From NCBI GenBank assembly GCA_026413765.1, contig JAOAKI010000004.1, positions 97,513 through 161,512 on the forward strand: DNA of 64,000 nucleotides, in the 5' to 3' direction. The DNA comes from Candidatus Micrarchaeota archaeon. GTDB taxonomy: Archaea; Micrarchaeota; Micrarchaeia; Anstonellales; Anstonellaceae. Below are positions 6,727 to 44,359 of this stretch, in pieces. Numbering within the stretch: position 1 is the stretch's first letter; every line of letters begins with the position of its first letter. A model generated the notes under the pieces. It saw only the letters and a program-made list of their open reading frames with translations, ran no database searches and was not told the DNA's origin. The position numbers were made by a program, and so were the translations under genes.

Positions 6727-9101
6727 CACTCAAATTCCACCTTTTCTTGGCTGTCTTGCAAATATTCTATATTTTTTATTTTTCCAGTGGCTTGCAGCTC
6801 TCCAAGCACTTGCTGTATGTCAACTCTGGACCTAATTTTTATCCTTTCTATTTCTGCATTCAAGGGGAGCCGCCTTTTTGCTTTCCACTGCCTTACTTCA
6901 GAAATGATCTTGTTTAATGCCTCTACTTTTTTTTCTGCATCATCGTCAATCAATTCCTCCTTGACCTTCGGCCAAGCGGAGAGGTGTATCGTTTTTTCTG
7001 GATGGAATGCCTGCCAAATTTCTTCTGTTATGTGTGGCGCTATTGGGGCAATTAGCTGGCAACATTCCAGCAACACGGTCTGCATAGTATGTTGTGCTGC
7101 TTGCTTGCTTTCCTTACCGTATGTCTCTGGTTGGTAGATGCGGTGCTTGGTGTACTCTAAGTAGAAATCACAGAACTCGTGCCAAAAGAAGTCTTGAACC
7201 TTGTTCAGCGCGCTGTGGAATTCAAAATTTTCATAGTCGTTTGTCACTTCCCTTTTGACCTTCTGAAGCCTTGACAATATCCACCTGTCAGTTATTTGGA
7301 GTGCAGACGGGGTACTGTCCTGCATTGTTTTGTTTTCACATGCCTTTTGGACCAATTTGGCTGCGTTCAAAAGCTTAGTTATGAAATTTTTCGCATATTG
7401 GACATCCTGGTAGGAAAATGGCCGGTCTTTAGCCATCGCACCAGCAAGCGCAGCCCACTGTCTTACAGCGTCTGCTGAATATTCGTCAATTAGTCTGTCT
7501 GGAGCAATTATATTCCCCAATGATTTGCTCATTTTTTTCCCATCAGGTGCAAGGACATTGCCATTCAGGAGAATGTCCTTGAAAGGAGGCATTCCTGTTA
7601 GAACGGTGCAGCGATATATTGTGTAGAATGCCCATGTCCGGACTATCTCCACACCCTGTGGCCGAAGGCTTACTGGATAGATTCGCCTAAAAAACTCCTC
7701 ATCATCCTTCCATCTTGCAATTATCAGTGGTGTGATTGACGAATCTACCCAACAGTCGCACGTCGATTGCTCTGCCACAAGCTCTTCACCGTTTGGCCCT
7801 TTCTTTGTCCTGTGCTTTATTGGGTCAAATGGCAACTCGTTTTCTTCTGCCGGGTAAATCTTGCCAGTTTTGCTGTCTATCCAAAAAGGCAGCGGAGTCC
7901 CAAAAACTCTCTGGCGCGAGATGACCCAATCCCAACCGACAAATTTTGCCCAATCTATCAAATACTGTATCCCAAAAGACGGGGTCCATCTTATCTTGCG
8001 GGCGCTTTCGATTATGTAGTCTGATTTGTCTATGATTTTTGCGAACCATTGCATTGAAAGAAGCAGCTCTATCGGTTTTTTGCACCTATCGTGCACTTTG
8101 ATAGTCTGCTTTATCTTGACGGCTTTCTCATATTTATTTTCGGCTTTAAGGCGTTCCAACGTTTTTGCCCTTGCTGATTGGATATCGCTGCCATCCAGCC
8201 ATAATCCATCGCTGTTTATGATGCGGCCTTTTTCATCAATCGCACGGATGACTGGCAATTTATGTCTATAGGCCCAAACAACGTCTTGCATATCTCCAAA
8301 AGTGCAAACCATTACAAGGCCAGAGCCAAACTCTTTTTCCACATCAGCGTCAGCAAGCAGAGGCACAGTTTTGCCAAGCGGTGTCTTAATTTTCTTGTCT
8401 TTTAAAATGGAATATCGTTCATCAGCAGGATGGTACAAAACAGCGACACACGCATGCAGGAGTTCTGGCCTTGTTGTCGCTACCAAAAGCGGTTTGCCAT
8501 CCTCCAAATAAAATTTTATATAGTGCAGATCGGTTTCCCTTTCAGCATCTTCTGTGTCTGTCTTTGCAAGCGCAGATACGCAATGCGGGCACCAAAACAC
8601 AGGATGCTCTGCTCGGTATATCTGCCCTTTTTTGTACATCTCCAAAATTGAGATTTGCACTTTTTTGTGGTAGGCTGGGTCCATCGTCCGGTATTCGTAT
8701 CTCCAATCTGCAGAAAACCCAAGCGCTTTCATTTGCGATTTCATCTTGGAGATAAACTCTTCAGTCCACGCAATGCATAATTTTCTGAATTCCTCTGGAG
8801 GTCTTCTGCCATATTTTTGCTCAACTTTTGTCTCGGTTGGAAATCCTTGGCAATCCCATCCTTGGGGATAATAAACGTTATACCCATTCATCCTTTTGTA
8901 GCGGGCTACAAAATCAAAGTAGGAATAGGAGAGCACATGGCCCATATGGAGCTCCCCTGAAGTGAATGGCGGAGGCGTGTCAATCGAGTAGATCGGCTTT
9001 GAATAATCGTCTTCCCTGAATTCATAAACTTTGTTTTTTTCCCACCATTCTTGCCATTTCTTTTCGATTTCTTTGCCATACTTTTCGCAAACTGCCATCA
9101 T
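6726..9101 (-). CDS. valS: Valyl-tRNA synthetase
   Basis: Class I aaRS with PPFTSGELHMGHVLSY (HIGH-like) and KMSKSLGN motifs plus the anticodon-binding tail. The track ORF begins at a TTG at 9194. The probable start is the ATG pair at 9096-9101 (MMAVCEKYGKEIEKKWQEWW). Confidence 0.92.
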   Translation of the reverse strand: MMAVCEKYGKEIEKKWQEWWEKNKVYEFREDDYSKPIYSIDTPPPFTSGELHMGHVLSYSYFDFVARYKRMNGYNVYYPQGWDCQGFPTETKVEQKYGRRPPEEFRKLCIAWTEEFISKMKSQMKALGFSADWRYEYRTMDPAYHKKVQISILEMYKKGQIYRAEHPVFWCPHCVSALAKTDTEDAERETDLHYIKFYLEDGKPLLVATTRPELLHACVAVLYHPADERYSILKDKKIKTPLGKTVPLLADADVEKEFGSGLVMVCTFGDMQDVVWAYRHKLPVIRAIDEKGRIINSDGLWLDGSDIQSARAKTLERLKAENKYEKAVKIKQTIKVHDRCKKPIELLLSMQWFAKIIDKSDYIIESARKIRWTPSFGIQYLIDWAKFVGWDWVISRQRVFGTPLPFWIDSKTGKIYPAEENELPFDPIKHRTKKGPNGEELVAEQSTCDCWVDSSITPLIIARWKDDEEFFRRIYPVSLRPQGVEIVRTWAFYTIYRCTVLTGMPPFKDILLNGNVLAPDGKKMSKSLGNIIAPDRLIDEYSADAVRQWAALAGAMAKDRPFSYQDVQYAKNFITKLLNAAKLVQKACENKTMQDSTPSALQITDRWILSRLQKVKREVTNDYENFEFHSALNKVQDFFWHEFCDFYLEYTKHRIYQPETYGKESKQAAQHTMQTVLLECCQLIAPIAPHITEEIWQAFHPEKTIHLSAWPKVKEELIDDDAEKKVEALNKIISEVRQWKAKRRLPLNAEIERIKIRSRVDIQQVLGELQATGKIKNIEYLQDSQEKVEFE

Positions 9102-9152: not shown

Positions 9153-9980
9153 TTTATGGACCTGGCTCAAATTATCTTGCTTGGGCTTATCCAAGCAATA
9201 ACCGAATGGCTCCCGCTTTCCTCAAAAACAATCTGCTCATTTGTCTATCTGAATTTTTTTGGAGGCAGTCCAGAAAAACTGGTTTCCGTTCTTCTTTTTT
9301 TGCATCTTGGAACGCTGCTTTCGGCAATCGTGTATTTGAGAAAGGAGCTGTTTGGCATTTTTTCTGAGACTGCAAAAGCCATGCGCCCTTTTCCTGGCAT
9401 CTTGCCAAAATTTTTGGAAAGCAAGCAAGGTTTCATTTTTTTTGCTTTATTGTCGACTGGTGCTGTTGGGCTTCCTTTATTGGTCCTGGAAAAAGCGCTC
9501 TTTCCAACCCTCAGCGGAGAGCTAATTCATATTCTGATGGGCTCTGGACTGGTTCTCACAGGATTTCTTTTGACTGCTAGCTCCAATTCAAGGTGGAGGA
9601 CAGCTGAGCTTGCAAACTGGAAAGATGGGCTTTTTGTTGGTGCTTTGCAAGGGCTCTCTGTGTTGCCAGGCGTTTCAAGGGCAGGCAGCACTACTGCTGG
9701 GCTCATTTGGAGAGGGTTTAATCCATCTTCTGCGCTTTTGCTTTCTTTTTTGCTTTCAATCCCCACTGTAATATTTGCTGAGCTTCTTTTCTGGTCCGCA
9801 AGCCAGCATTTTTCCACTATCAATTTTTCTGATGGCTTTTTGTTGCTAATCAGTAGCTTTATTTTCGGCTATGCCACTATTGATGCATTGCTGCAGCTTG
9901 CTCAACGCTTTAATTTGGCTTGGCTTGCATTTCTTTTTGGGATTATAATGCTAGTTTTCGGCAGCCTTGGAATGAGCTAG
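9153..9980 (+). CDS. uppP: Undecaprenyl-diphosphatase (BacA/UppP family)
   Basis: Eight-TM protein carrying the two BacA signature motifs, TEWLPLSS (compare EFLPVSSSGH) and PGVSRAGSTTAG (compare PGxSRSGxT). The track start at 9135 is a TTG. The ATG is at 9153. Confidence 0.8.
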   Translation, partial: FMDLAQIILLGLIQAITEWLPLSSKTICSFVYLNFFGGSPEKLVSVLLFLHLGTLLSAIVYLRKELFGIFSETAKAMRPFPGILPKFLESKQGFIFFALLSTGAVGLPLLVLEKALFPTLSGELIHILMGSGLVLTGFLLTASSNSRWRTAELANWKDGLFVGALQGLSVLPGVSRAGSTTAGLIWRGFNPSSALLLSFLLSIPTVIFAELLFWSASQHFSTINFSDGFLLLISSFIFGYATIDALLQLAQRFNLAWLAFLFGIIMLVFGSLGMS

Positions 9981-12538
9981 CCGCAGACACCACCTGAGCA
10001 GATGCCCGAGCAGCAATTTATATTAAGCTCGCAGGTAGCTCCTGTTGGAAGGCATGAGCAGGCTTGGATATCACAGATTCTTGAGCAGCATTCTTCGTTC
10101 TTTGTGCATGGCCCGCCTTGTCGCTGGCAATTTATGCAACGCCCGTTTCCTGGCGGGATGCACTGCAAATTATTGCAGCATTGGATATCACTTATGCATG
10201 TTGCGTTTTCTGCATAGCATGCCTGGCATATTCCGCCGATGCATGCTAGATTTGAGCAGCACTGAGCGCTTGATGTGCAGCTTCCGCCTTCTGCCCGGCA
10301 AGTGCTGCATACTCCGTTGGAACAATATGGGGCAGATGGGCAACATTCGCTATCTTGCGTGCAGCTTCCGCCTTGGCGGTTGCAGCATGCGCCATTTACG
10401 CAACTACCCGAGCAGCAATTTACATCTTTCTCACAGGGCGAAAGCACGGCATAGCAGCCGCACACCCCTCCAGCGCAAACTTCACTGCAGCAGTCATGAG
10501 GTCCGTCGTTGCATTCTTTGCCTAAACCCAGGCAAGCTTGGCAAATGCTCGGCCTGCCTCTGCAGAGTATTCCCGCCCCGCAACATTCTTGATCTGCCTG
10601 ACAATTTGTACCGGTATTGGGGCAAAGCGTGCATCTTTTTGCACCTTCCTGGCCCACGCATTTTAGAGTGCCGCAACATTCGCTGTCTTGCGTGCATGTC
10701 TGCCCTATATCGCGGCATACGCAGATTCCGCCTTCACAAATGCGTCCATCACAACAATCTCTATTGACTGTGCAATTCTTTCCAAGCCCGCTGCATGACC
10801 TGCATGTCCCAAATGGCGCGCCAATGCAATTTAGCCCAGGGCAGCACTTGTAGTCTGCATTGCACGGTGTACCTTCTTGATAGCATGGGCGGCAGCCACT
10901 GTCTATGCATACCAACCCAGAACAGCATACCTGCCCTGCGCAGTAGGTTCCTTGCGGCACGCATGCGCCGCATGTTCCAGTCCCATTTTCGTTCATAAAG
11001 CACGCAAGCCCGCTACAACAATCGCTGTTTGTTGTGCAGCTTTGTCCTGACGAGCGGCAGAAGCCGCATTGCCCCATTATGCAAAGCAATCCGCTTCCAG
11101 GGCAGCAATCCGAACTTTGCACGCAATTTCCTCCCTCCGCAACGCAACAGATGCCATTATTGCATGTTCCTCGGCAACAATCACTGCTGTTTTGGCATGC
11201 GCCCCCTATGCCTATGCATGCTTGGCATGTTCCGCCAATGCAAGTCAATCCTTGGCAGCAGTCTGAAGGAGAGTAGCAAGCTTGCCCATTTTGTCTGCAT
11301 TCTTCGCAAAGCTTTGGTCCAGATGCAGGCCCAACGCACACCAAATTCCCGCAGCACTGCGAAGTCTGCTGACATATCTGTCCATTTTCGATGCACGCCT
11401 GGCAATATCCCGCAGGAGTGCATATCAACGGACTGCAACAATCTGATTGGCTTCTGCATTCTTGGTTAATCTCTTTGCATGGCTGGCAAACAGCATCTAT
11501 ACAAAGCAACCCGCTGCAGCAGTCTGTCCCAACTTGGCAACTTTCGCCCTTATGGTGGCAAATTTGGCACACTCCGTCTACACAATTCAGTCCGCCGCAG
11601 CATTCCGATGCGTCTACGCAGCTTTCTCCTTCGCCTTGGCATTCAGAGCAGACACCTGTTGAAAGCATGCAAACAAGTGGCGGGTCTTGTCCCCCGCAGC
11701 AATCCTGGTTCAGGAGGCAACCGCCTTGATTTTGGCTAAGGCAGCACCTTCCTTCTGAACACGATCCAGAGCAACATTCATCATCTGTCATGCAGCTTGT
11801 TCCCAGCCCCTTGCATCCGCTGCATACGCCGCCAATGCATCGCAGGCTTCCGCAGCAATCCTCGCTCGTAGTGCAGGTTTGCGATTCATTGCCGCATATT
11901 GAGCAAATGCCATCAACACACCTGAGGTTTCCGCAGCACTCGTCGCTGCTTGTACACTCGCTTCCCATCCGCTGGCAGGTAATGTTTGCAAACGCACATT
12001 TCAACGCAAGCCTTTTTTCTCCCTCTTGGAACTTGCCGCTCACTCCTACCTTAGAATAATCGAACCTTACCTTTAATTTTACGATTTTGCCCGGCTCGCA
12101 CGGAGGCGAGTCAGAAAGCACAACCCCGATTATCTTTCTTTCTGAGGTGGCAAGGCGCAAAGAATTTGTCTCCGGCCCGCCATATTCACAAAATACGCCG
12201 CTTTGGTTTTCTATCGTTATGCCTGTGACAGTAATCGTATCTACATCGCTGTTTTCGATTGCAAGGATATAGCCTCCCTTGTCAGGCTGGGTGCAAATCA
12301 CACCAAAATAGGCAATTGCTTCATAAATTCTTATTGGTTTGGCTGGTCCTGTCCAATAAAGCCTCGAATCTGTAATTGCGGACTCATCAGAAGGGGAAAG
12401 GAAAGAATTTAGAAAAATCATTACAACTATTCCTATTATCAGGACCATACCAACAGTAAATAGATATTCAGGTGAGGCTTGCCCCTTTGCCTCTCTTTTC
12501 GCTTTTTGAATCATCGCAAAATGCTTCTTTTCTACCAT
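9977..12538 (-). CDS. Giant cysteine-rich tandem-repeat surface protein with an archaeal type IV prepilin-like (class III) signal peptide
   Basis: 853 aa. The N-terminus KAKREAK|GQASPEYLFTVGMVLIIGIVVMIF matches the [KR]-G-Q cleavage motif plus hydrophobic helix of archaeal pilins. A globular region of about 140 aa follows. Then come about 24 tandem modules of 25-28 aa, each with six Cys in the pattern G-x2-C-x5-6-CC-x-G-L-x-C-x3-5-C-x2-C. Confidence 0.85.
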   Translation of the reverse strand: MVEKKHFAMIQKAKREAKGQASPEYLFTVGMVLIIGIVVMIFLNSFLSPSDESAITDSRLYWTGPAKPIRIYEAIAYFGVICTQPDKGGYILAIENSDVDTITVTGITIENQSGVFCEYGGPETNSLRLATSERKIIGVVLSDSPPCEPGKIVKLKVRFDYSKVGVSGKFQEGEKRLALKCAFANITCQRMGSECTSSDECCGNLRCVDGICSICGNESQTCTTSEDCCGSLRCIGGVCSGCKGLGTSCMTDDECCSGSCSEGRCCLSQNQGGCLLNQDCCGGQDPPLVCMLSTGVCSECQGEGESCVDASECCGGLNCVDGVCQICHHKGESCQVGTDCCSGLLCIDAVCQPCKEINQECRSQSDCCSPLICTPAGYCQACIENGQICQQTSQCCGNLVCVGPASGPKLCEECRQNGQACYSPSDCCQGLTCIGGTCQACIGIGGACQNSSDCCRGTCNNGICCVAEGGNCVQSSDCCPGSGLLCIMGQCGFCRSSGQSCTTNSDCCSGLACFMNENGTGTCGACVPQGTYCAGQVCCSGLVCIDSGCRPCYQEGTPCNADYKCCPGLNCIGAPFGTCRSCSGLGKNCTVNRDCCDGRICEGGICVCRDIGQTCTQDSECCGTLKCVGQEGAKRCTLCPNTGTNCQADQECCGAGILCRGRPSICQACLGLGKECNDGPHDCCSEVCAGGVCGCYAVLSPCEKDVNCCSGSCVNGACCNRQGGSCTQDSECCPSAPYCSNGVCSTCRAEGGSCTSSAQCCSNLACIGGICQACYAENATCISDIQCCNNLQCIPPGNGRCINCQRQGGPCTKNEECCSRICDIQACSCLPTGATCELNINCCSGICSGGVCG
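9980..11980 (-). repeat. Intragenic tandem array of about 24 cysteine-knot-like modules of roughly 75-84 nt each. It is degenerate at the DNA level and conserved at the protein level.
   Basis: Recurrent xDCCxGLxCxxGxCxxC peptide units. Strong codon-periodic composition (TGC, TGT, GGN) that leaves long spurious ORFs open on both strands. Confidence 0.8.
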
Positions 12539-24164: not shown

Positions 24165-24271
24165 GGGCCCGTGGCGCAGGCTGGATAGCGCGGCAGACTT
24201 CTAGCGGTTCCCCTCTTTGTGGGTATGCGGCAGGAATCTGAAGGTCGTGAGTTCAAATCTCACCGGGCCCG
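24165..24271 (+). tRNA. tRNA-Arg(TCT) with an intron of about 32 nt 3' of the anticodon loop
   Basis: Hand fold gives a 7-bp acceptor stem (GGGCCCG/CGGGCCC), D-arm GCGC-10 nt-GCGC, anticodon stem GCAGA with loop CTTCTA (anticodon TCT), a T-arm GTGAG-TTCAAAT-CTCAC and discriminator G. About 32 extra nt (24204-24235) precede the 3' anticodon-stem strand TCTGA. The intron and anticodon stem 3' strand are not cleanly resolved by hand. Confidence 0.6.
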
Positions 24272-24273
24272 CT

Positions 24274-24936
24274 ATGCAGTCAGCTACACGAATAAAAAAA
24301 GGCAAGATAGAGAAAGTAATCACAATTCTGAAAAAAACTTACCCTAACGCCCGCTGCACGCTCAATTATAAAACACCAATCGAACTTCTTGTTGCCACGA
24401 TTTTGTCTGCGCAATGCACTGATGAAAGAGTAAACAAATTGACACCCCCTCTTTTTTCAAAATATAGGAAGGCCGAAGATTTTGCAGAAGCTCCTCTGTC
24501 CGATCTCAAGCGCTATATCAAGTCTGCTGGATTTTATAACACCAAAGCAAGATATATCAAAGAAGCTTGCAGAATAATTCACCAAAAATATGGTGGCAAA
24601 TTGCCAAATCAGATGAAGCAGCTTCTTGAGCTTCCAGGGGTCGGCAGAAAAACCGCAAATATACTGCTGGGAAATATATATGGGATTCATGAGGGCATCC
24701 CGATCGACACGCATGCCTATAGAATTAGCAGGAGGCTAGGCTGGACAGTCAAAAATAGCCCTGAGGCTATAGAATTCGACCTAATGAAAATCATTCCAAA
24801 AAAATATTGGCTAAAGATTTCGGATTTGTTTGTCCATCATGGGAGGGCAATTTGCAAAGCTAAAAAGCCTGCCTGTAGCCGCTGCCCTATTTCTGCCTAT
24901 TGTCCAAAAATAGGAGTCAAAAGAGTTGCAAAATAG
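24274..24936 (+). CDS. nth: Endonuclease III (HhH-GPD DNA glycosylase/AP lyase with a 4Fe-4S cluster)
   Basis: HhH motif LPGVGRKTANIL, catalytic Lys/Asp region and the C-terminal CxxxxxxCxxCxxxxxC cluster (CKAKKPACSRCPISAYC). The ATG at 24274 lies 3 nt after the tRNA. The track ORF start at 24217 overlaps the tRNA. Confidence 0.9.
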   Translation: MQSATRIKKGKIEKVITILKKTYPNARCTLNYKTPIELLVATILSAQCTDERVNKLTPPLFSKYRKAEDFAEAPLSDLKRYIKSAGFYNTKARYIKEACRIIHQKYGGKLPNQMKQLLELPGVGRKTANILLGNIYGIHEGIPIDTHAYRISRRLGWTVKNSPEAIEFDLMKIIPKKYWLKISDLFVHHGRAICKAKKPACSRCPISAYCPKIGVKRVAK

Positions 24937-25428
24937 CTACTTGAGAACAACCAGATTCGTCATTCCTCGCCTCTTTCTCTCTATGAGGCCGCGCTGCTCT
25001 AGCCTGTCTAATATTCTTGAAACTTTGACTTTTGTGAAGCCGGTTTTTTTCACTATTTCGGATTGAAATATTGATCCGTCTGAATTTTGTACCAATCCTA
25101 ATACAATTTTTTCATTTTGATCTTTTATTTTCTCTAAATCAAAGTTTGTAATTATTTTTCTTTCTGTCAAGGGCAAAGCTTCTTCTTTCTTTGAAAAAAT
25201 CAAGTAGATTGCGCCAAAAACTATGACAATATTGAGGAATAAAAGGAGCAGGATTACCATATTTTGCGTTTCAACAACTTTTTTGTGAGGACAGTCACCG
25301 TTTTCGTGCATGCAACTTTCCGCTGAAAGCTCATTGAGGGCGTTGTTGTAAAAGTAAATTGTTATTCCAGAAATGACAAGTACTATCAATAAAGTGATTA
25401 CCAAACTCGTTGAATTCTGAAACTTCAT
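24937..25428 (-). CDS. Membrane-tethered winged-helix transcriptional regulator. It is a putative metal sensor of the adjacent divergent cop locus.
   Basis: Two TM helices flank a Cys/His loop (ESCMHENGDCPH). A C-terminal wHTH follows (SEIVKKTGFTKVKVSRILDRLEQRGLIERK). It is divergently oriented from copZ with a 73-nt shared promoter region. Confidence 0.55.
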   Translation of the reverse strand: MKFQNSTSLVITLLIVLVISGITIYFYNNALNELSAESCMHENGDCPHKKVVETQNMVILLLLFLNIVIVFGAIYLIFSKKEEALPLTERKIITNFDLEKIKDQNEKIVLGLVQNSDGSIFQSEIVKKTGFTKVKVSRILDRLEQRGLIERKRRGMTNLVVLK

Positions 25429-25507
25429 GAAACTCCTCCTCTATGAAACTAGTTTCGCCAATACATATTTAAGTTGTTATCTATCCGCTTTCTGAGTTGG
25501 GGTGGCT

Positions 25508-25708
25508 ATGAAAAGAACTTTGTATATTGAAGGAATGCACTGCGCCTCGTGTGAAAAGCTTATTGCGATGAATCTGCTAAAAATAGCCGGTGTCAAAGCG
25601 GTAAAGGCAGACGCGCAAAAAGGGATTGTGGAGATAGAGGGAGAAGGTTACGATTTAGCAGTGGTCCGAAAAGCAGTCCAAGCGGCAGGATACAAAGTTA
25701 AGAGGTAA
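25508..25708 (+). CDS. copZ: Copper chaperone CopZ (HMA domain)
   Basis: GMHCASC metal-binding motif in a ferredoxin-like fold of about 67 aa. The track start at 25502 is a GTG. The ATG is at 25508. Confidence 0.88.
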   Translation: MKRTLYIEGMHCASCEKLIAMNLLKIAGVKAVKADAQKGIVEIEGEGYDLAVVRKAVQAAGYKVKR

Positions 25709-25712
25709 TAAA

Positions 25713-26438
25713 ATGGGCGAGGAGGAAGCGGACATCTTTTCTGAATTAAAGTCTTTCTTGCATTCTTCAATTTTTGGAGTAGGCACTCACAAACTTGAGC
25801 ATAAGATCTTGCGATATGCAACATACACATTTTTATCCCAGCTATTTGCCCTCGGGCTGGTCTATTATTTTTACTCCTCTTCTATTCAAAATTCAGAAAT
25901 TTTGTTCCCATATCTCTTGTATACAATAATTTCATCGGTTGCGGTTTCAGCTTCTTCATTTTACCATTATGCCCATCGCCTGAGCTTTACCTGCATGGAA
26001 GGGATGATGGCTGGCATGACAAATGGGATGATTGCTGGCTTTCTTTTTGGCGCCATCACAGGCGCCACAAACGGAATGTTTGTAGGGAGTTTGGTTGGGA
26101 TGTTTGTTGGCATGGCAATTGGTTTATGGTGCGGAAAGTGCTGTGGCATAATGGGTACACTTGAAGGTCTGATGGCTGGATTGATGGCAGGCCCAATGGG
26201 TGCAATGTTATCTGTCATGATGCTCTTTGACAATTTGGCTATTTTCATTCCTATTTTGGTTTTTGCTTGCATCATTATTCTTGTTGCGTTTGGGTATATG
26301 GTCAGGACCACTGCGGCTGCTCGCACAGAAGGAAAAGATGTCGGATTTTTGCCATTTTTCCTTTTCGCTCTTTTTCTGACTTTGTTTGTGCACCTTATTG
26401 TCTTGTTCGGTCCTCGCTCTACATCCGTGGTTGTATGA
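25713..26438 (+). CDS. Methionine-rich polytopic membrane protein, a putative Cu(I)-binding or transport accessory protein
   Basis: 241 aa. A central segment of about 80 aa holds about 18 Met in MxxxM/GMxxGM motifs plus a CGKCCG cluster. It is flanked by TM helices and sits between copZ and copA, overlapping the copA start by 4 nt. Confidence 0.5.
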   Translation: MGEEEADIFSELKSFLHSSIFGVGTHKLEHKILRYATYTFLSQLFALGLVYYFYSSSIQNSEILFPYLLYTIISSVAVSASSFYHYAHRLSFTCMEGMMAGMTNGMIAGFLFGAITGATNGMFVGSLVGMFVGMAIGLWCGKCCGIMGTLEGLMAGLMAGPMGAMLSVMMLFDNLAIFIPILVFACIIILVAFGYMVRTTAAARTEGKDVGFLPFFLFALFLTLFVHLIVLFGPRSTSVVV

Positions 26439-28594
26439 AACGTGAAGATTTTACGATCAATGGCATGCATTGCGCTTCCTGTGCGGCACTCATAAGAAGT
26501 AAACTCCTGTCACTGCCTGGTGTAAAAAACGCTAATGTAAATTTTGCCGCTGCAAGGGCACAGGTAGAATACGACAATACAATTCTAACTCAGAGTGAGA
26601 TCGTCAATGCTATCACATCTTTGGGCTATTCAGTATCTGTTGGTTTTGACCCTCAAAGAGAAAAACTCGAGCGACAAAAAGAGATTTCCAGCTTGAGAAA
26701 AAAGCTGATTATCAGCCTTCTGCTAACTATTCCCACCATCATTATTGGTATGTTTTTGATGGATTTCCCTAATAGAATGTTGATACTTTTTTTGCTTGCA
26801 ACGCCAGTCCAGTTTTTTGTCGGCTGGCAGTTTTATCTTGGTGCATTTTCTGCACTGCGCAACCGATCTGCAACGATGGATACGCTAATTGCTATTGGCA
26901 CTTCTGCAGCATATGTTTATTCGCTTGGAGCAGTTTTTGGTCTGGCAACTGAACAATATTTTGAGGTTTCAACAACACTCATCACGCTTGTCGTAGCTGG
27001 AAAATATCTTGAAGCAATTGCAAAAGGTAGAGCAAGCGAGGCAATTCGCAAAATGCTTGCTTTATCCCCAAAGTTTGCGCATGTGAAAAAAGGCAGCAAA
27101 GAGGTCAAGGTCCCTATTGAGAATGTAAAAAAGAATGATATTGTAATCATCAAGCCTGGTGAAAGAATACCTGTCGATGGAATTGTGTTATCGGGTCACT
27201 CGACTGTTGATGAGTCAATCATTACAGGAGAGCCAATTCCAGTGGAGAAGGCTCCAAAATCTCGTGTTGTTGCTGGCTCAATAAATCGACATGGCATACT
27301 TGTCATAAGAGCCCTATGCGATGGGAAAGATTCCACAATTGCGCGAATAATAAAATTGGTTGAAGAAGCTCAAGGCAGCCATGCGCCAATCCAAAGGTTT
27401 GCAGACATCGTAAGTTCTTATTTTGTTCCGCTCATTATATTTGTAGCCTCTACCACTTTTGTCTATTGGTTCGTAGTTGCCAATTTGCCGCTTTCGACTG
27501 CGCTTATGTTTGCGATCTCCGTGCTTGTCATTGCCTGCCCTTGTGCATTGGGCTTAGCCACTCCCACCGCACTTATTGTTGGGATTGGGATAGGCGCGCA
27601 GCGTGGCATTTTAATCAAGAATGCAGAGGCGCTAGAATCACTGCATAAAGTCAATGCTATTGTTTTTGACAAAACCGGTACTCTAACAAAGGGCAAGCCG
27701 GCAGTAACAGATATTGTGACATTTTATCGCTATGATAAGAGAAAACTGCTTACAATCTTAGCTTCGCTAGAGAAATACTCTGAGCATCCGCTGGCAGAAT
27801 GCATTTTGGAGGAAGCAAAAAAGAATCAAATATCCACATTAACTGTCCAAGATTTCAAATCTATTCCAGGATACGGCATAACTGGCAAAATTAAAGGAAT
27901 GCAGTTTTACGCAGGAAACCAAAAGCTTTTCAACCCTATACCAGCCAAAATCATGCGTGCCACTGCCACCTTAGAAAATGAAGGCAAGACGGTATTTTTC
28001 ATTGGGCAAAAGAAAAAAATAATCGGCCTTGTCGCAGTATCTGACGAAATAAAGCCAACGGCAGCGCAAGCTGTTGCTGAGCTCAAAAAAGAAAAAATAG
28101 AGTGCTGGCTGATTACTGGGGACAACCAGAGAGTAGCAAATGCGGTCGCAAGGAAAATAGGCATCCAAAACTTTTTCGCAAACGTTCTGCCCGAAAAAAA
28201 GGCGGAATATATCAAAGAGTTGCAGAAAAAGGGAAAATTCGTTGCAATGGTTGGTGATGGAATCAATGATGCACCTGCATTAGCGGCGGCAGATGTTGGA
28301 ATTGCAGTTGGATCAGGAACAGATGTTGCACTAGAGAGCGGAAGCATAGTCCTCCTGCGTTCCGATCCAATGGATGTCGTGCATAGCTTTCGACTTGGAA
28401 AAGCGACATTAAACAAGATTCGGCAAAACATGTTTTGGGCATTTATATACAATGTTTTGGGAATTCCCATCGCAGCCGGAGTTTTTTATTCCAGTGGCTT
28501 AGCCCTGTCTCCAATAATTGCAGGAGCAGCAATGGCTCTTTCAAGCATCTCGGTGGTGGTTAATGCAATATTGTTGAATTTTGAAAGAATATAA
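26435..28594 (+). CDS. copA: Copper-translocating P1B-type ATPase CopA
   Basis: N-terminal HMA domain (GMHCASC), TM CPC motif (ACPCALGLATP), DKTGTLT phosphorylation site, GDGINDAP hinge and TGE actuator. The 56-aa N-terminal extension in the track is the out-of-frame tail of the upstream gene. The ATG is at 26435. Confidence 0.95.
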   Translation: MKREDFTINGMHCASCAALIRSKLLSLPGVKNANVNFAAARAQVEYDNTILTQSEIVNAITSLGYSVSVGFDPQREKLERQKEISSLRKKLIISLLLTIPTIIIGMFLMDFPNRMLILFLLATPVQFFVGWQFYLGAFSALRNRSATMDTLIAIGTSAAYVYSLGAVFGLATEQYFEVSTTLITLVVAGKYLEAIAKGRASEAIRKMLALSPKFAHVKKGSKEVKVPIENVKKNDIVIIKPGERIPVDGIVLSGHSTVDESIITGEPIPVEKAPKSRVVAGSINRHGILVIRALCDGKDSTIARIIKLVEEAQGSHAPIQRFADIVSSYFVPLIIFVASTTFVYWFVVANLPLSTALMFAISVLVIACPCALGLATPTALIVGIGIGAQRGILIKNAEALESLHKVNAIVFDKTGTLTKGKPAVTDIVTFYRYDKRKLLTILASLEKYSEHPLAECILEEAKKNQISTLTVQDFKSIPGYGITGKIKGMQFYAGNQKLFNPIPAKIMRATATLENEGKTVFFIGQKKKIIGLVAVSDEIKPTAAQAVAELKKEKIECWLITGDNQRVANAVARKIGIQNFFANVLPEKKAEYIKELQKKGKFVAMVGDGINDAPALAAADVGIAVGSGTDVALESGSIVLLRSDPMDVVHSFRLGKATLNKIRQNMFWAFIYNVLGIPIAAGVFYSSGLALSPIIAGAAMALSSISVVVNAILLNFERI

Positions 28595-28622
28595 TTTCGG
28601 AAAATGAAAAATAGGTGAGAGG

Positions 28623-29042
28623 ATGGATTCCAAATATTTGTTTTATGTTGTTATGGTGGGTACATTTTTGTTCTTAGGGTTGATTTTTTTCTCAAGTCAA
28701 AAACTTGAGGATATGCCAATTGACGAAACTATCCCTGTCTCCAATCTTTCGACACCACAAAATATAAGTGGCGAAGCTCAGGAAGTCTCGATCAGAGCGC
28801 TGAAAACAGGAAGATATGACAAAAGTATTATTGAGGTTAAGGCAGGCGTCCCAATCAAGCTGTCATTTACTGCTGATCCAGGGGCTGGTTGTGGCCGCCA
28901 GCTGCTCATCGACAACGTCGGGATAAATCTTATTTCGAGAAACGGAGAAACCGTTGTCGCCTATTTCACATTTCCGCAGCCAGGCAGGTATAATTTCCAT
29001 TGTGCGATGAATATGTTTAGGGGAACTTTCATAGCAAATTGA
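28623..29042 (+). CDS. Membrane-anchored cupredoxin-like small protein, a possible copper-binding protein
   Basis: N-terminal TM anchor, then a beta-rich domain ending GRYNFHCAMNMFRGTFI. The Cys, His and Met are spaced like a type-1 copper site. It lies immediately downstream of copA. Confidence 0.5.
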   Translation: MDSKYLFYVVMVGTFLFLGLIFFSSQKLEDMPIDETIPVSNLSTPQNISGEAQEVSIRALKTGRYDKSIIEVKAGVPIKLSFTADPGAGCGRQLLIDNVGINLISRNGETVVAYFTFPQPGRYNFHCAMNMFRGTFIAN

Positions 29043-41962: not shown

Positions 41963-42616
41963 ACTCTCAATTTTAGTCTTTTTTCTTTTTTTTAGCATTT
42001 TTGGCCTATTTATGAAATAAAGAGTATAAAACTAAAATAAATTTAGAATTACTAACATATATTTTGAAAAATTTGGATCTGCCATTTTTTGATGAAAACG
42101 AAGAAAGAAAAATCCAAAACTTTGCCAAATTCTTAAAATAACTTGAATTTTCAATGAACAGCAGTTAATCTAAAAGCAAAAAAATACCATATAAGAAAAC
42201 TGCAAAAATAATTTTAAAACTGATAAAGTAAACCATATATGAAAGAGTTTATGCAACTTTTTTTCTCTGGTTTCTCGTCACAATATTTATTGACATTTTT
42301 TGATGCAACAGGCTTGCTTGTGAGCAAAAACTTGGCAAAAAAATGGAAATAGCATAATTTTTTGCACTTTTGGTATACCAAAATGAGATTATTAACTAGA
42401 TTGGTATACTAATAAGATGTTAAAATATTTTAACATAATTTAAGATGATTTGTTTTGATTGAAAAGAAATAGCACGTGGTTAACTTGGATTCTACAATTT
42501 CTTACAGTCAATCAAGAACATTAAAGCAAAAAAAGCGAATAATTTTTAGGAAACAAATATTCTTAGTATCTTTTAGTTTTGCTAATATATTTTTAGAAAA
42601 TTTAGGATATATTAAG
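41963..42616. other. 650-bp AT-rich gene-free spacer between convergent genes. It contains the perfect palindrome TGGTATACCA (42371-42380) and a second TGGTATAC copy (42402-42409).
   Basis: No ORF of 60 aa or more on either strand. Composition is far below the window average. Repeats were read directly. Confidence 0.5.
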
Positions 42617-43228
42617 CTAGCGCCCATCAATGTCTTTATTGGCACTATATGTAAGCAAAGGACCATATTTTCTAGAACTGATTAAATAATAATCAAATAC
42701 AAGGCTTATTGCATGAACAGCATGAAAAACTACATGTGCTTCTTGTGTATCTTTAAAATCTGCAATTGAGGCCGCCTCAATTAAAATTTTATTTAGTCTC
42801 TGCCTGAATTCAAGCAGAAAATTTTCAACTTCATGATTCTCATAGCTTGAAAATGAAGGAAAAGCAGGCAGGCGGTTTTTTGAGCTTTCTATAAATGAAT
42901 TGAATCTGTTTCCATAAAATGGAAAGCCAGGCAAGCTTGCTATTTTTATCATATAATATGCAAAATCTGTGACTTCTTTTTGGGCAGGGATGGGAATGCC
43001 TGAATTCTGAATGGATTTGATGATAGCAAAAACTACTTTTTTGTATATCTGGGTAAACTGCTTGCGATTGTTGCATAGGTGCTGCTTTTCTTCCAACTTC
43101 AAATCTATATTCAAATTCTTATCAATGAGCGGCTGCTTGTTTCTTACTACTGCCAAATCAACTTTGTATATGCGTTGCAGTTTTATGGCTTGAATGTTTG
43201 CAAACCTAAAAATTACATGGCTATCCAT
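42617..43228 (-). CDS. Hypothetical protein with a low-GC coding sequence
   Basis: 203 aa, ATG start, K/N/I/F/Y-rich. No recognisable motif. It lies 3 nt downstream of the preceding gene, so it is probably co-transcribed. Confidence 0.45.
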   Translation of the reverse strand: MDSHVIFRFANIQAIKLQRIYKVDLAVVRNKQPLIDKNLNIDLKLEEKQHLCNNRKQFTQIYKKVVFAIIKSIQNSGIPIPAQKEVTDFAYYMIKIASLPGFPFYGNRFNSFIESSKNRLPAFPSFSSYENHEVENFLLEFRQRLNKILIEAASIADFKDTQEAHVVFHAVHAISLVFDYYLISSRKYGPLLTYSANKDIDGR

Positions 43229-43231
43229 AAT

Positions 43232-44359
43232 TTAACCCTCCTTAATGAAATGTTTCAAATCTGCAAGCAGCAGTTTTCTTAGCAAAACTGGGTCAGAAGT
43301 GAACAATGGCTTGATCGTCTCTGCTGCTTTTTTGTAGCCGTGCATATAAAGCCAATTTGAAAAGTCATCTCGCGAAGCATGCGCAATTAAGGATGCATCG
43401 TCAATTTTTTCTATATATTCACACAATTCAGCTAGGTTTTTTGCCCTTCCAATTTCTATCCCAGAAGGGGTTCTGAAAATGAAATCCCCAAAACCAAAAA
43501 AATCGCGCAAAATGTCCCCCACTTTCTTGAAAAGGAGAGGATCGGACTTGCTGATGACGAATCCGATGTGTTTTTCGCTGGCTTTCTGCAACTTTTCTTG
43601 CGCACCAGACTGGAAAATTATCGGAACTGTTTTGTTGTATGCCCTAAGCATTTTGGCAAGCTCGAAACTAAGTTCGATATTGCGGAGCCCCAAAATTGCT
43701 CCTGCAAACCTGTTCTTGCCTTCAATAATGAATTTTTCTGCTTCAGAGTATTCTCTGGCAAGAAGAATATGTGCCCTTTTTTCGTTGAGCTTGAAAAGTT
43801 CAACCAGATAACCGGAGTAATAGTTTGGTTTGCTCTCAAAAATCAGAATAAGCCTTTCATTGTCCAACTTATAGTTTAGTTTACTTTCGTGCAATTCAAC
43901 CATCGCAGGAAAAATCTCTGCCTGGCCGGTATATTGGAAAACATAATCAATTTTTGGAATAACGACATTAGGGTCAAACCCCCTATCCTTGACGAACTCT
44001 GCAAACTTTTCTAGGCTGCCACAGCAATAGAGATTGCTTGTGATGAGGGCGAAGGCTGCATTGGAATACTCTTTGACATCAATTGCGATTTGTTCGCCTT
44101 TGTATGGGCGGTCATCCCCAATATCGCTAATGACTATTGTGCGCCCGTCTGCGCCCCTGATTTTTTCGATTAACTCAGGCAAGACTTCTTCCCTTGTGCG
44201 CTTCTGAGTTGTCCCGCTTTTTACTGTCAAGATGCTTTCAACTTGGATTTTTCTCCACAGGATTGATTCCAATTCGGCGCGTATTTTCTGGGTCTCCCTA
44301 AGCGGCCCAATAACTACTGCCTTCTGGACCTGTATAACATTTGAGACATTATTTTGCAT
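43232..44359 (-). CDS. Hypothetical 375-aa protein
   Basis: ATG start and soluble. No motif I can name. It is divergent from the PPDK_N-domain gene. Confidence 0.5.
   Translation of the reverse strand: MQNNVSNVIQVQKAVVIGPLRETQKIRAELESILWRKIQVESILTVKSGTTQKRTREEVLPELIEKIRGADGRTIVISDIGDDRPYKGEQIAIDVKEYSNAAFALITSNLYCCGSLEKFAEFVKDRGFDPNVVIPKIDYVFQYTGQAEIFPAMVELHESKLNYKLDNERLILIFESKPNYYSGYLVELFKLNEKRAHILLAREYSEAEKFIIEGKNRFAGAILGLRNIELSFELAKMLRAYNKTVPIIFQSGAQEKLQKASEKHIGFVISKSDPLLFKKVGDILRDFFGFGDFIFRTPSGIEIGRAKNLAELCEYIEKIDDASLIAHASRDDFSNWLYMHGYKKAAETIKPLFTSDPVLLRKLLLADLKHFIKEG

Follow-up and report, generated by a model that had tools for sequence, protein, structure and literature searches.

How does a micrarchaeote sense copper and dispose of it, and what might a methionine-rich membrane protein and a regulator apparently anchored in the membrane contribute beside a copper ATPase? 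These questions are raised by a five-gene locus at positions 24937 to 29042 of a 64,000-nucleotide stretch of the genome of a Candidatus Micrarchaeota archaeon (assembly GCA_026413765.1, contig JAOAKI010000004.1), hereafter the window. The five-gene arrangement is far from chance and is seen again in dozens of independent genomes. The favoured explanation is that the locus represents one copy of a Cu(I)-detoxification module kept across DPANN archaea and also present in some bacteria of the Candidate Phyla Radiation (CPR). A probability of about 0.55 is given to this explanation as a whole, that is, jointly to the gene identities, to a Cu(I) relay through the membrane and to a repressor sensing extracellular copper. 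Overall, the operon is of a known kind, a cop operon, and what is new in it is a family of seven-helix membrane proteins, the architecture of the regulator and the presence of a CupA-type chaperone far from streptococci.

The Copper Locus and Its Relatives

The locus comprises five open reading frames (ORFs), all found where the first-pass annotation had placed them. A regulator gene on the minus strand (24937..25428) diverges from four genes on the plus strand: copZ (25502..25708), a gene encoding a Met/Gly-rich protein with seven predicted transmembrane (TM) helices (25713..26438), copA (26435..28594) and a CupA-like cupredoxin gene (28623..29042). Because the successive gaps between these four genes are 4, -4 and 28 nt, they are considered as one tight operon. 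Gene identities and layout thus bear out the divergent copper locus that had been proposed, and the suggested translational coupling of the Met-rich gene and copA is consistent with the overlap of the stop codon of the former with the ATG of the latter, as ATGA, in this window. Two further points were absent from that annotation and are developed below, namely that copZ and the Met-rich gene correspond to a split HMA-7TM fusion and that the regulator gene is accompanied by a conserved candidate operator.

Two of the proteins are conventional. CopZ (68 aa) can be assigned as a cytosolic HMA Cu(I) chaperone, as it is a stand-alone domain which carries the GMHCASC motif and scores 49.2 bits against PF00403 (cut-off 24.8). 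It reaches 42 bits with the NCBIfam CopZ equivalog models, below their cut-off of 85, and no subfamily is claimed. Its start is ambiguous: the ORF caller gives GTG at 25502, and the alternative ATG at 25508, which follows GGGGTGG at a Shine-Dalgarno-like distance and agrees with the starts of homologues, is more likely to be the real one. For copA, the longest ORF runs from 26267 and the HMA-containing protein of 719 aa, with one N-terminal HMA domain, from the ATG at 26435. Its score against TIGR01511 (copper P1B-1; 627.8 bits, cut-off 397) and its complete motif set (MHCASC 11, TGE 264, CPC 368, DKTGT 412, GDGIND 607, YN 672 and MALSS 700) identify CopA as a standard P1B-1 Cu(I)/Ag(I)-exporting ATPase.

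Related loci were collected by a pattern scan of one genome per species, which gave 129 confirmed loci of which 80 were kept, and neighbours were counted by tblastn with the five window proteins in those 45 that are flanked by 4 kb or more on each side. The 80 loci belong to Micrarchaeota, Iainarchaeota, Woesearchaeota, Pacearchaeota, Nanoarchaeota and Aenigmatarchaeota and to three CPR bacteria. In the well-flanked set, copA lies within 5 kb of the Met-rich gene in 43 of the 45 loci, so that a failure of the Met-rich gene to be conserved next to copA, the outcome named beforehand as refuting its role, is clearly not the case. A CupA-like gene is found within 2 kb in 34/45, an HMA domain, either fused or within 500 bp, in 22/45 (an automatic score which misjudged many fusions through its frame and ORF-boundary logic) and the regulator within 2 kb in 19/45. 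Micrarchaeota have either the gene order cupredoxin-copZ-7TM-copA or that of the window, and Woesearchaeota, Pacearchaeota and Nanoarchaeota have 7TM-cupredoxin ... copZ-copA. The genes that keep closest to the 7-TM gene are therefore those of the two types of chaperone and not copA. The three CPR loci (L044, Uhrbacteria; L045, Parcubacteria; L071, Patescibacteria) carry the Met-rich family with cupredoxin and copA neighbours on long contigs and lack the archaeal regulator. This distribution suggests that the Met-rich module has been transferred between the two groups of ultra-small cells, DPANN and CPR.

The Regulator and Its Candidate Operator

The regulator (163 aa) is a member of the archaeal Pfam family DUF7343 (PF24034), matched at residues 104-162 with 56.8 bits (cut-off 27.6), and this winged helix-turn-helix (wHTH) domain also matches MarR_2 (40.6 bits, cut-off 27). 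The protein has 274 homologues, annotated as 'MarR family' or 'uncharacterized membrane protein', and all those listed carry PF24034. The wHTH is preceded by a predicted TM hairpin (residues 6-38 and 47-82), whose two hydrophobic helices are joined by the loop CMHENGDCPH (residues 39-48). Among 31 diverse homologues, C39 and C46 are invariant (31/31) within the motif C-x-[H/D]-x(2-5)-C-x-[H/M], and hardly any variation is seen in the recognition helix and wing (KVKVSRILDRLE..GLIERKRRGMTN). The AlphaFold2 (AF2) model has a predicted local distance difference test (pLDDT) score of 84, above 93 in the wHTH, and shows the two cysteines flanking the 8-residue turn at the tip of the hairpin. As the wHTH has to reach DNA, this tip is placed outside the cytoplasm. 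The first-pass description of a two-TM wHTH regulator with an outward Cys/His loop, distinct from the CopR and CsoR types, thus holds well: no TRASH, CsoR, CopY or MerR signature is present among its Pfam and NCBIfam matches. Foldseek matched only the ~60-residue wHTH to MarR, ArsR and ROK regulators and not the whole architecture. The MarR dimerisation helices are also absent, the chain ending at the wing and the TM hairpin preceding the wHTH.

A DNA-binding domain held at the membrane, with a signal received outside or within the membrane and no kinase, is reminiscent of ToxR and CadC and of ArnR and ArnR1 from Sulfolobus acidocaldarius; CadC also uses periplasmic cysteines, as might the Cys loop of the window regulator. 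However, ToxR and CadC start with an OmpR-type wHTH, cross the membrane once and end in a periplasmic sensor domain, while the window regulator has the reverse order, with a TM hairpin first, an 8-residue Cys loop as putative sensor and a MarR/DUF7343-like wHTH last. The reversed order and the two TM helices exclude it from the ToxR/CadC-like class, with which it has only the tethering principle in common. In ArnR, a regulator of pili and archaella cited in PMC13286277, the HTH is N-terminal. With the archaeal CopR (Lrp/wHTH and TRASH domains), CsoR, CopY and CueR, the regulator shares an adjacent, often divergent gene, a palindromic operator and the control of copZ and copA, but these proteins are soluble and sense cytosolic Cu(I), in contrast to the predicted tethering of the window protein. 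The cop island of the micrarchaeote Mia14 contains an Lrp/TRASH-type regulator (PMC5498576); judging from its predicted architecture, the membrane-tethered regulator is a different solution within the same phylum.

The intergenic region of 73 nt contains a perfect palindrome, GAAACTAGTTTC (25445..25456), a candidate operator which is the sole copy in the window and lies 16 nt from the start codon of the regulator gene and 8 nt upstream of a TATA-like box of the cop operon, ATATTTAA (25465..25472, plus strand), whose function is presumed from its sequence. Read on the opposite strand as TTAAATAT, this box might also act for the divergent regulator gene. A direct repeat, ATGAAACT, is present twice in this area (25427-25434 and 25442-25449).

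Across the 80 related loci (982 kb), 25 copies of the exact 12-mer, mostly in the form TGAAACTAGTTTCA, were counted in 23 loci, against 0.07-0.10 copies expected. Most of the listed related promoters have a TATA-like element 8-10 nt past the palindrome, a fixed spacing that recurs in many phyla, and an ORF starts 38-160 nt past each copy, the mode being exactly 38 nt (12 cases), which suggests leaderless transcripts. Behind every copy, this ORF encodes the Met-rich protein, CopZ, a cupredoxin or a Cys-rich protein. Many related promoters have an additional GTTTC half-site just past the TATA box, where the window reads GTTAT. Since protein bound at the palindrome and this half-site would bracket the site of TBP and TFB, repression is favoured.

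The association was also examined from the regulator side, using three homologues picked regardless of the Met-rich gene (L081, L082 and L084). CopA, HMA or cupredoxin genes are once more found beside the regulator in these loci, and the operator is exact or has one mismatch: regulator - operator - HMA-7TM - FtrD-like - CopA in L082, regulator - GAAACTGGTTTC - CopA in L084 (Altiarchaeota) and regulator - cupredoxin ... GAAACTAGTTAC - HMA-DsbD_TM in L081. The association of regulator, operator and copper genes is therefore robust, and binding of the regulator to the palindrome is presumed from it.

This association also bears on a somewhat unlikely alternative, in which the Cys pair would form a thiol/disulfide switch responding to redox or oxidative stress, or simply a structural disulfide, copper having an indirect role or none. 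Such a switch would agree with the invariance of the two cysteines only, as the flanking His, Met and Asp residues vary (C-x-H/D...C-x-H/M), and with the model, in which the cysteines, 7 residues apart at the tip of the hairpin, could easily be bridged; in E. coli CadC, a periplasmic disulfide serves as signal input. It fits less well with the location of the regulator and operator specifically before copA, HMA and cupredoxin genes, also when the search starts from the regulator, and with the soft third ligand (His or Met) found two residues past the second cysteine in 30/31 homologues.

Two other kinds of protein were encountered behind the operator. At L081:7509-8960, an HMA domain is fused to a DsbD_TM/CcdA-like membrane domain (483 aa); the operator-like GAAACTAGTTAC lies at positions 7459 and 9982, and the genes that follow, all beside the regulator homologue, encode an FtrD-like and a second DUF7343 protein. 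By its domain composition and promoter, this protein is another kind of HMA-membrane fusion apparently under the same control. A membrane-anchored protein of ~220 aa, with the motifs CEYCCGA...GERACGCAHSYAMRG, a C-terminal GGC and no Pfam match, is encoded 38-39 nt downstream of GAAACTAGTTTC (L017:3851-4513, L039:2879-3556 and L052:4149-4820, with homologues in L005, L008, L011, L015 and L024). The regulon thus seems to extend to this protein, which the window lacks.

A Family of Methionine-Rich Membrane Proteins

The Met-rich protein (241 aa) is 100% identical to N3G80_01875, a hypothetical protein of a Candidatus Micrarchaeota metagenome-assembled genome. It has no Pfam or NCBIfam model, and scans of this protein and of all 21 members of the family alignment A2 against both collections returned sub-threshold Gly-zipper and compositional matches only. 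When PDB sequences were searched with the A2 profile, the sole match, at E 2, was a low-complexity artefact rich in G and M. On these comparisons, the ORF is a member of a large 7-TM family new to Pfam, NCBIfam and the PDB, which counts 567 homologues and 722 representatives of 50%-identity clusters.

The core of the protein (residues 94-172, 79 aa) contains 15 Met, 18 Gly and 4 Cys residues, seven MxxxM pairs and the motif CGKCCG; the MxxxM repeats and CGKCCG of the first-pass annotation are thus present, and its count of about 18 Met in 80 aa was too high. In the family alignment A1, the core reads C-M-x-G-M-M-x-G-M-T-x-G-M-x-x-G-F-x-x-G-x-x-x-G-A-T-N-G-M-F-x-G-x-x-x-G-M-x-x-G-x-x-x-G-x-x-x-G-K/R-C-C-G-x-M-G-x-M/L-E-G-x-M-x-G-x-M-x-G-x-M-G-A-M-x-x-V-M-M-x-x-D. 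Invariant positions are M98, M99, M102, M106, T119, N120, M147, E151, M154, M158, M162, M165, M169 and D173, while C94, C143 and C144 are kept at ~90% (C143/C144 in 31/35). Altogether, at least twelve invariant Met residues and the Cys cluster are spread over TM3-5.

The AF2 model of the protein (pLDDT 94.3, predicted template modelling score 0.90) consists of an N-terminal amphipathic helix followed by seven TM helices (27-54, 61-87, 94-120, 122-144, 146-169, 175-200 and 212-232). Foldseek found no fold relative in the PDB: the best match, a ZIP transporter, was rejected (E 0.42, TM-score 0.29). Likewise, the HMA-DsbD_TM protein of L081, which hhalign aligned to A2 over just 27 residues in the first TM helix (18% probability), was rejected as a relative, and assignment to MerT, MerC or MerF, transporters with one Cys pair in TM1 and another in the cytoplasm, was rejected since no NCBIfam or Pfam model matches, the MerTP and MerT-CopZ models matching the HMA protein only.

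A resemblance to Ctr- or CopB-type Cu(I) selectivity motifs had been noted, and homology to such proteins is not supported. Ctr proteins have three TM helices, with MxxxM in TM2 and GxxxG in TM3, and form a trimeric pore. Ctr1 (SLC31) and CusA likewise stack Met thioethers (MxxxM) in TM helices which pack through GxxxG, and most plausibly the 7-TM protein works like their Met relays. This resemblance is one of chemistry, by analogy only. Ctr1 is a trimer of 3-TM subunits and CusA has a 12-TM RND fold, whereas the window protein has seven TM helices and no kinship of sequence or fold with either; a Ctr (SLC31) channel was discarded in view of the seven helices of the model and of the absence of a Pfam copper transporter match and of a fold match. 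Compared to Ctr1 and CusA, the 7-TM family adds a cluster of cysteines at the predicted cytoplasmic face and covalently attached HMA or cupredoxin partners.

These partners are informative on topology (P#### and L### being our labels for family proteins and examined loci). Many homologues of 300-330 aa begin, from about residue 4 and without a signal peptide, with an HMA domain, as read from the protein sequences, so that copZ and the Met-rich gene of the window can be regarded as the split form of this fusion. In P0168 and P0224, a CupA-type cupredoxin (C...CxMxM) follows within 20 residues of TM7, and P0246 adds a SurA_N-like domain and a cupredoxin to the Met-rich domain. P0233 (L086:301-1800) is a histidine kinase made of an HMA domain, TM1-6 of the Met-rich domain, HisKA_3 and HATPase_c, in which the membrane domain is, by this architecture, a sensor module. 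A separate HMA gene precedes it in L086.

As HMA and kinase domains are both cytoplasmic and six TM helices apart, the end of TM7 should be outside. The loop charges agree with this topology (on average 5.3 K+R per loop predicted inside and 1.8 outside), and the fusions and charges together point to an N-in/C-out protein. In this model, C94, C140, C143 and C144 would lie at the cytoplasmic face and T119, N120 and D173 at the outer face, while Met stripes on TM3-5, above all M147-154-158-162-165-169 on TM5, would span the bilayer. The cupredoxin, fused or anchored, would be located outside.

The CupA-Like Cupredoxin

The last gene of the operon encodes a protein of 139 aa which matches PF13473 (Cupredoxin_1) with 40.2 bits (cut-off 27). 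It has a hydrophobic N-terminal anchor (residues 6-24), followed by a Ser/Thr/Pro/Asn linker with two N-x-S sequons (NLS and NIS), and contains C90, H126 (its sole His), C127, M129 and M131. Its best PDB relatives in phmmer searches are the S. pneumoniae CupA structures 2MRY and 4F2E (E 2.3e-7), followed by 4F2F, the cupredoxin-type N-terminal domain of pneumococcal CopA (E 3.3e-6). In the alignment with CupA and 4F2F, C90 and C127-x-M129-x-M131 fall on the ligand positions of CupA, whose Cu(I) ligands we take to be C74 and C111-x-M113-x-M115. In 61 homologues that come from loci with the Met-rich gene, all four residues are kept throughout (61/61), compared with 7/61 for H126. From its sequence, the protein is thus a membrane-anchored CupA homologue with a Cys...Cys-x-Met-x-Met set of Cu(I) ligands.

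Like CupA, it combines the Cupredoxin_1 fold, a single N-terminal TM anchor and the same ligands, and is encoded in a cop operon beside copA, with ~25-30% identity between the two proteins. They differ in their surroundings, since pneumococcal CopA has a cupredoxin-type N-terminal domain and the window CopA an ordinary HMA N-terminus plus a separate CopZ. The CupA-type chaperone of the window is thus paired with an HMA-type CopA and probably faces outward, as indicated by the fusions, the signal-anchor and the sequons; the cupredoxin-type CopA partner which goes with CupA is absent, and an outward location would differ from the cytoplasmic face at which CupA is described. CupA has been described as confined to a few streptococci (PMC7558416). 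According to the homologues collected here, the CupA-type form is widespread in DPANN and CPR, far outside these bacteria.

Proposed Mechanism and Alternatives

Based on these features, a mechanism can be proposed for the module. The 7-TM protein would receive Cu(I) from CopZ, or from the fused HMA domain, at its cytoplasmic Cys cluster and, in the manner of the Met relays of Ctr1 and CusA, conduct it along the Met stripes of TM3-5 to its outer face. There, the outward CupA-like domain would take over the metal, and possibly also Cu(I) leaving CopA. The 7-TM protein would thus be a Cu(I) relay parallel to, or assisting, the ATP-driven CopA, and the invariant E151 and D173 might serve in proton coupling or as exit residues. 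A dimer of the regulator would sit on the palindrome beside the TFB-recognition element (BRE) and TATA box, most likely as a repressor. Upon binding of copper to its outward Cys2-His/Met loop, or oxidation of this loop, the regulator would be released or re-oriented and its binding to DNA changed, so that the cell would read extracellular and not cytosolic copper.

Several points weigh against this proposal, its weakest parts being the direction and the energetics of the passage of Cu(I) along the Met stripes. The protein shows no energy-coupling domain, and under stress a passive Cu(I) path would let copper leak into the cell. Helices rich in GxxxG and Met could partly reflect packing instead of ligands, and the Met side chains may face lipid or an oligomer interface and not an internal path. 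No single protein with both HMA and cupredoxin domains fused was seen, hence the outward placement of the cupredoxin combines separate fusions, and pneumococcal CupA reportedly acts on the cytoplasmic side (PMC7558416), opposite to the orientation proposed for the window domain. Concerning regulation, the regulator is nearby in only 42-50% of loci, the palindrome is assigned to it by co-occurrence only, and the evidence does not decide between a repressor, which is most likely, and an activator.

The absence of an energy-coupling domain has a natural place in an unlikely alternative, in which the 7-TM protein does not translocate Cu(I) at all. It would instead be a sink or 'membrane metallochaperone' which takes up Cu(I) from CopZ or the bilayer and hands it sideways to the entry platform of CopA, as an accessory subunit of the ATPase, or, in a variant, a copper-binding sensor module. 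The ATGA coupling with copA in the window, the presence of copA within 300 bp downstream in 28/80 loci and the sensor-like use of the TM domain in the P0233 histidine kinase are in line with such roles. In many Woesearchaeota, Pacearchaeota and Nanoarchaeota loci, however, copA is 1-4 kb away with genes in between and the cupredoxin is the tight neighbour. Furthermore, a hand-over on the cytoplasmic side would need neither the TM7-cupredoxin fusions nor a stripe spanning the bilayer from M147 to M169.

The proposed relay can also be read in reverse. MerT/MerP (with MerTP fusions) and CopC/CopD (YcnJ) follow a similar logic, a small multi-TM protein with soft ligands being coupled or fused to a soluble metal-binding domain on one side of the membrane or on both, but the membrane part is non-homologous, the HMA domain of MerP is outside where that of the window is cytoplasmic, and both systems import, whereas export is the direction proposed here. 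If the CupA-like protein and the 7-TM protein formed an uptake route of the CopC/CopD or YcnJ type, the cupredoxin would capture copper, the Met ladder import it and the HMA domain or CopZ receive it, either to feed a cytosolic or membrane target or for a controlled routing of copper to CopA. The topology and fusion evidence is neutral as to direction, the uptake genes copCD lie in Pseudomonas copper-resistance operons and CopC-CopD fusions (YcnJ) exist. Against this, copper enzymes, heme-copper oxidases among them, are reportedly missing from many DPANN lineages, for instance Mia14 (PMC5498576). The 7-TM gene also has its operon and operator in common with an exporter, and import upon an export signal would be futile, which makes this route quite doubtful.

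Finally, the type-1 (blue) copper site with which the first-pass annotation had judged the downstream protein compatible, as in an electron-transfer protein or an oxidase-like domain, is very improbable. Cupredoxin_1 does match, and Cu-oxidase_2 weakly so with an E-value of 0.0079 that misses the cut-off, but such a site requires two His, one Cys and usually one Met, and a single, poorly kept His excludes it, and with it a plastocyanin- or azurin-type protein with its His-Cys-His-Met set, the residues kept being aligned instead with the binuclear Cu(I) ligands of CupA.

Returning to the export relay, a stronger statement can be made tentatively: that the 7-TM protein represents a new family of Cu(I) transporters, which carry Cu(I), independently of ATP, on a Met ladder from an HMA donor in the cytosol to a CupA-like acceptor outside the cell, that the regulator is the first one-component, membrane-tethered sensor of extracellular copper, acting at a phylum-spanning TGAAACTAGTTTCA element bracketing the archaeal TATA box, and that together they form a copper defence specific to ultra-small DPANN and CPR cells. 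Taken jointly, these three claims are possible, the balance leaning against them.

Other Features of the Window

Outside the copper locus, a minus-strand ORF of 853 aa (9977-12538) has an N-terminal hydrophobic, pilin- or signal-like segment followed by ~20 tandem Cys-rich modules of the form C-x-x-x-x-D/E-C-C-x-x-L-x-C-x-x-G-x-C-x-x-C. It accounts for a local GC peak (52.8%, against ~42%), and its product is probably a large surface protein which is rich in disulfides or binds metal. A tRNA of 107 nt, presumably intron-containing, lies on the plus strand at 24165-24271 (Rfam 49.8 bits), was missed by ARAGORN and is in keeping with an archaeal genome. The endonuclease III ORF, as extended upstream, runs into this tRNA, so that the real start of the gene is probably the ATG near 24277. 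This gene, on the plus strand, and the regulator gene, on the minus strand, converge at 24936/24937 with zero bases between their stop codons. The region 42001-44000 is low in GC (33.6%) and contains two unannotated minus-strand ORFs of 203 and 375 aa, as well as a gap of 650 nt (41963-42616) in which no long ORF occurs.

Implications for Copper Biology in Ultra-Small Cells

Work on how DPANN archaea and CPR bacteria deal with copper is virtually absent, yet a large share of subsurface microbial diversity belongs to these organisms. A literature search on DUF7343, on copper systems of DPANN and Micrarchaeota and on membrane-bound archaeal copper regulators, which was not exhaustive, found no description of these proteins and no mention of DUF7343. 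With its invariant Met/Cys ladder and its fusions to two kinds of copper chaperone, the 7-TM family is a strong candidate for a Cu(I)/Ag(I) conduit, and should the transport idea fail, a corrected annotation would still be gained for several hundred proteins now called 'hypothetical' or 'MarR family'. CupA-type chaperones are widespread outside streptococci, where they probably work outside the cell. The regulator and its operator could show how an extracellular metal signal is coupled directly to the access of TBP and TFB to an archaeal promoter.

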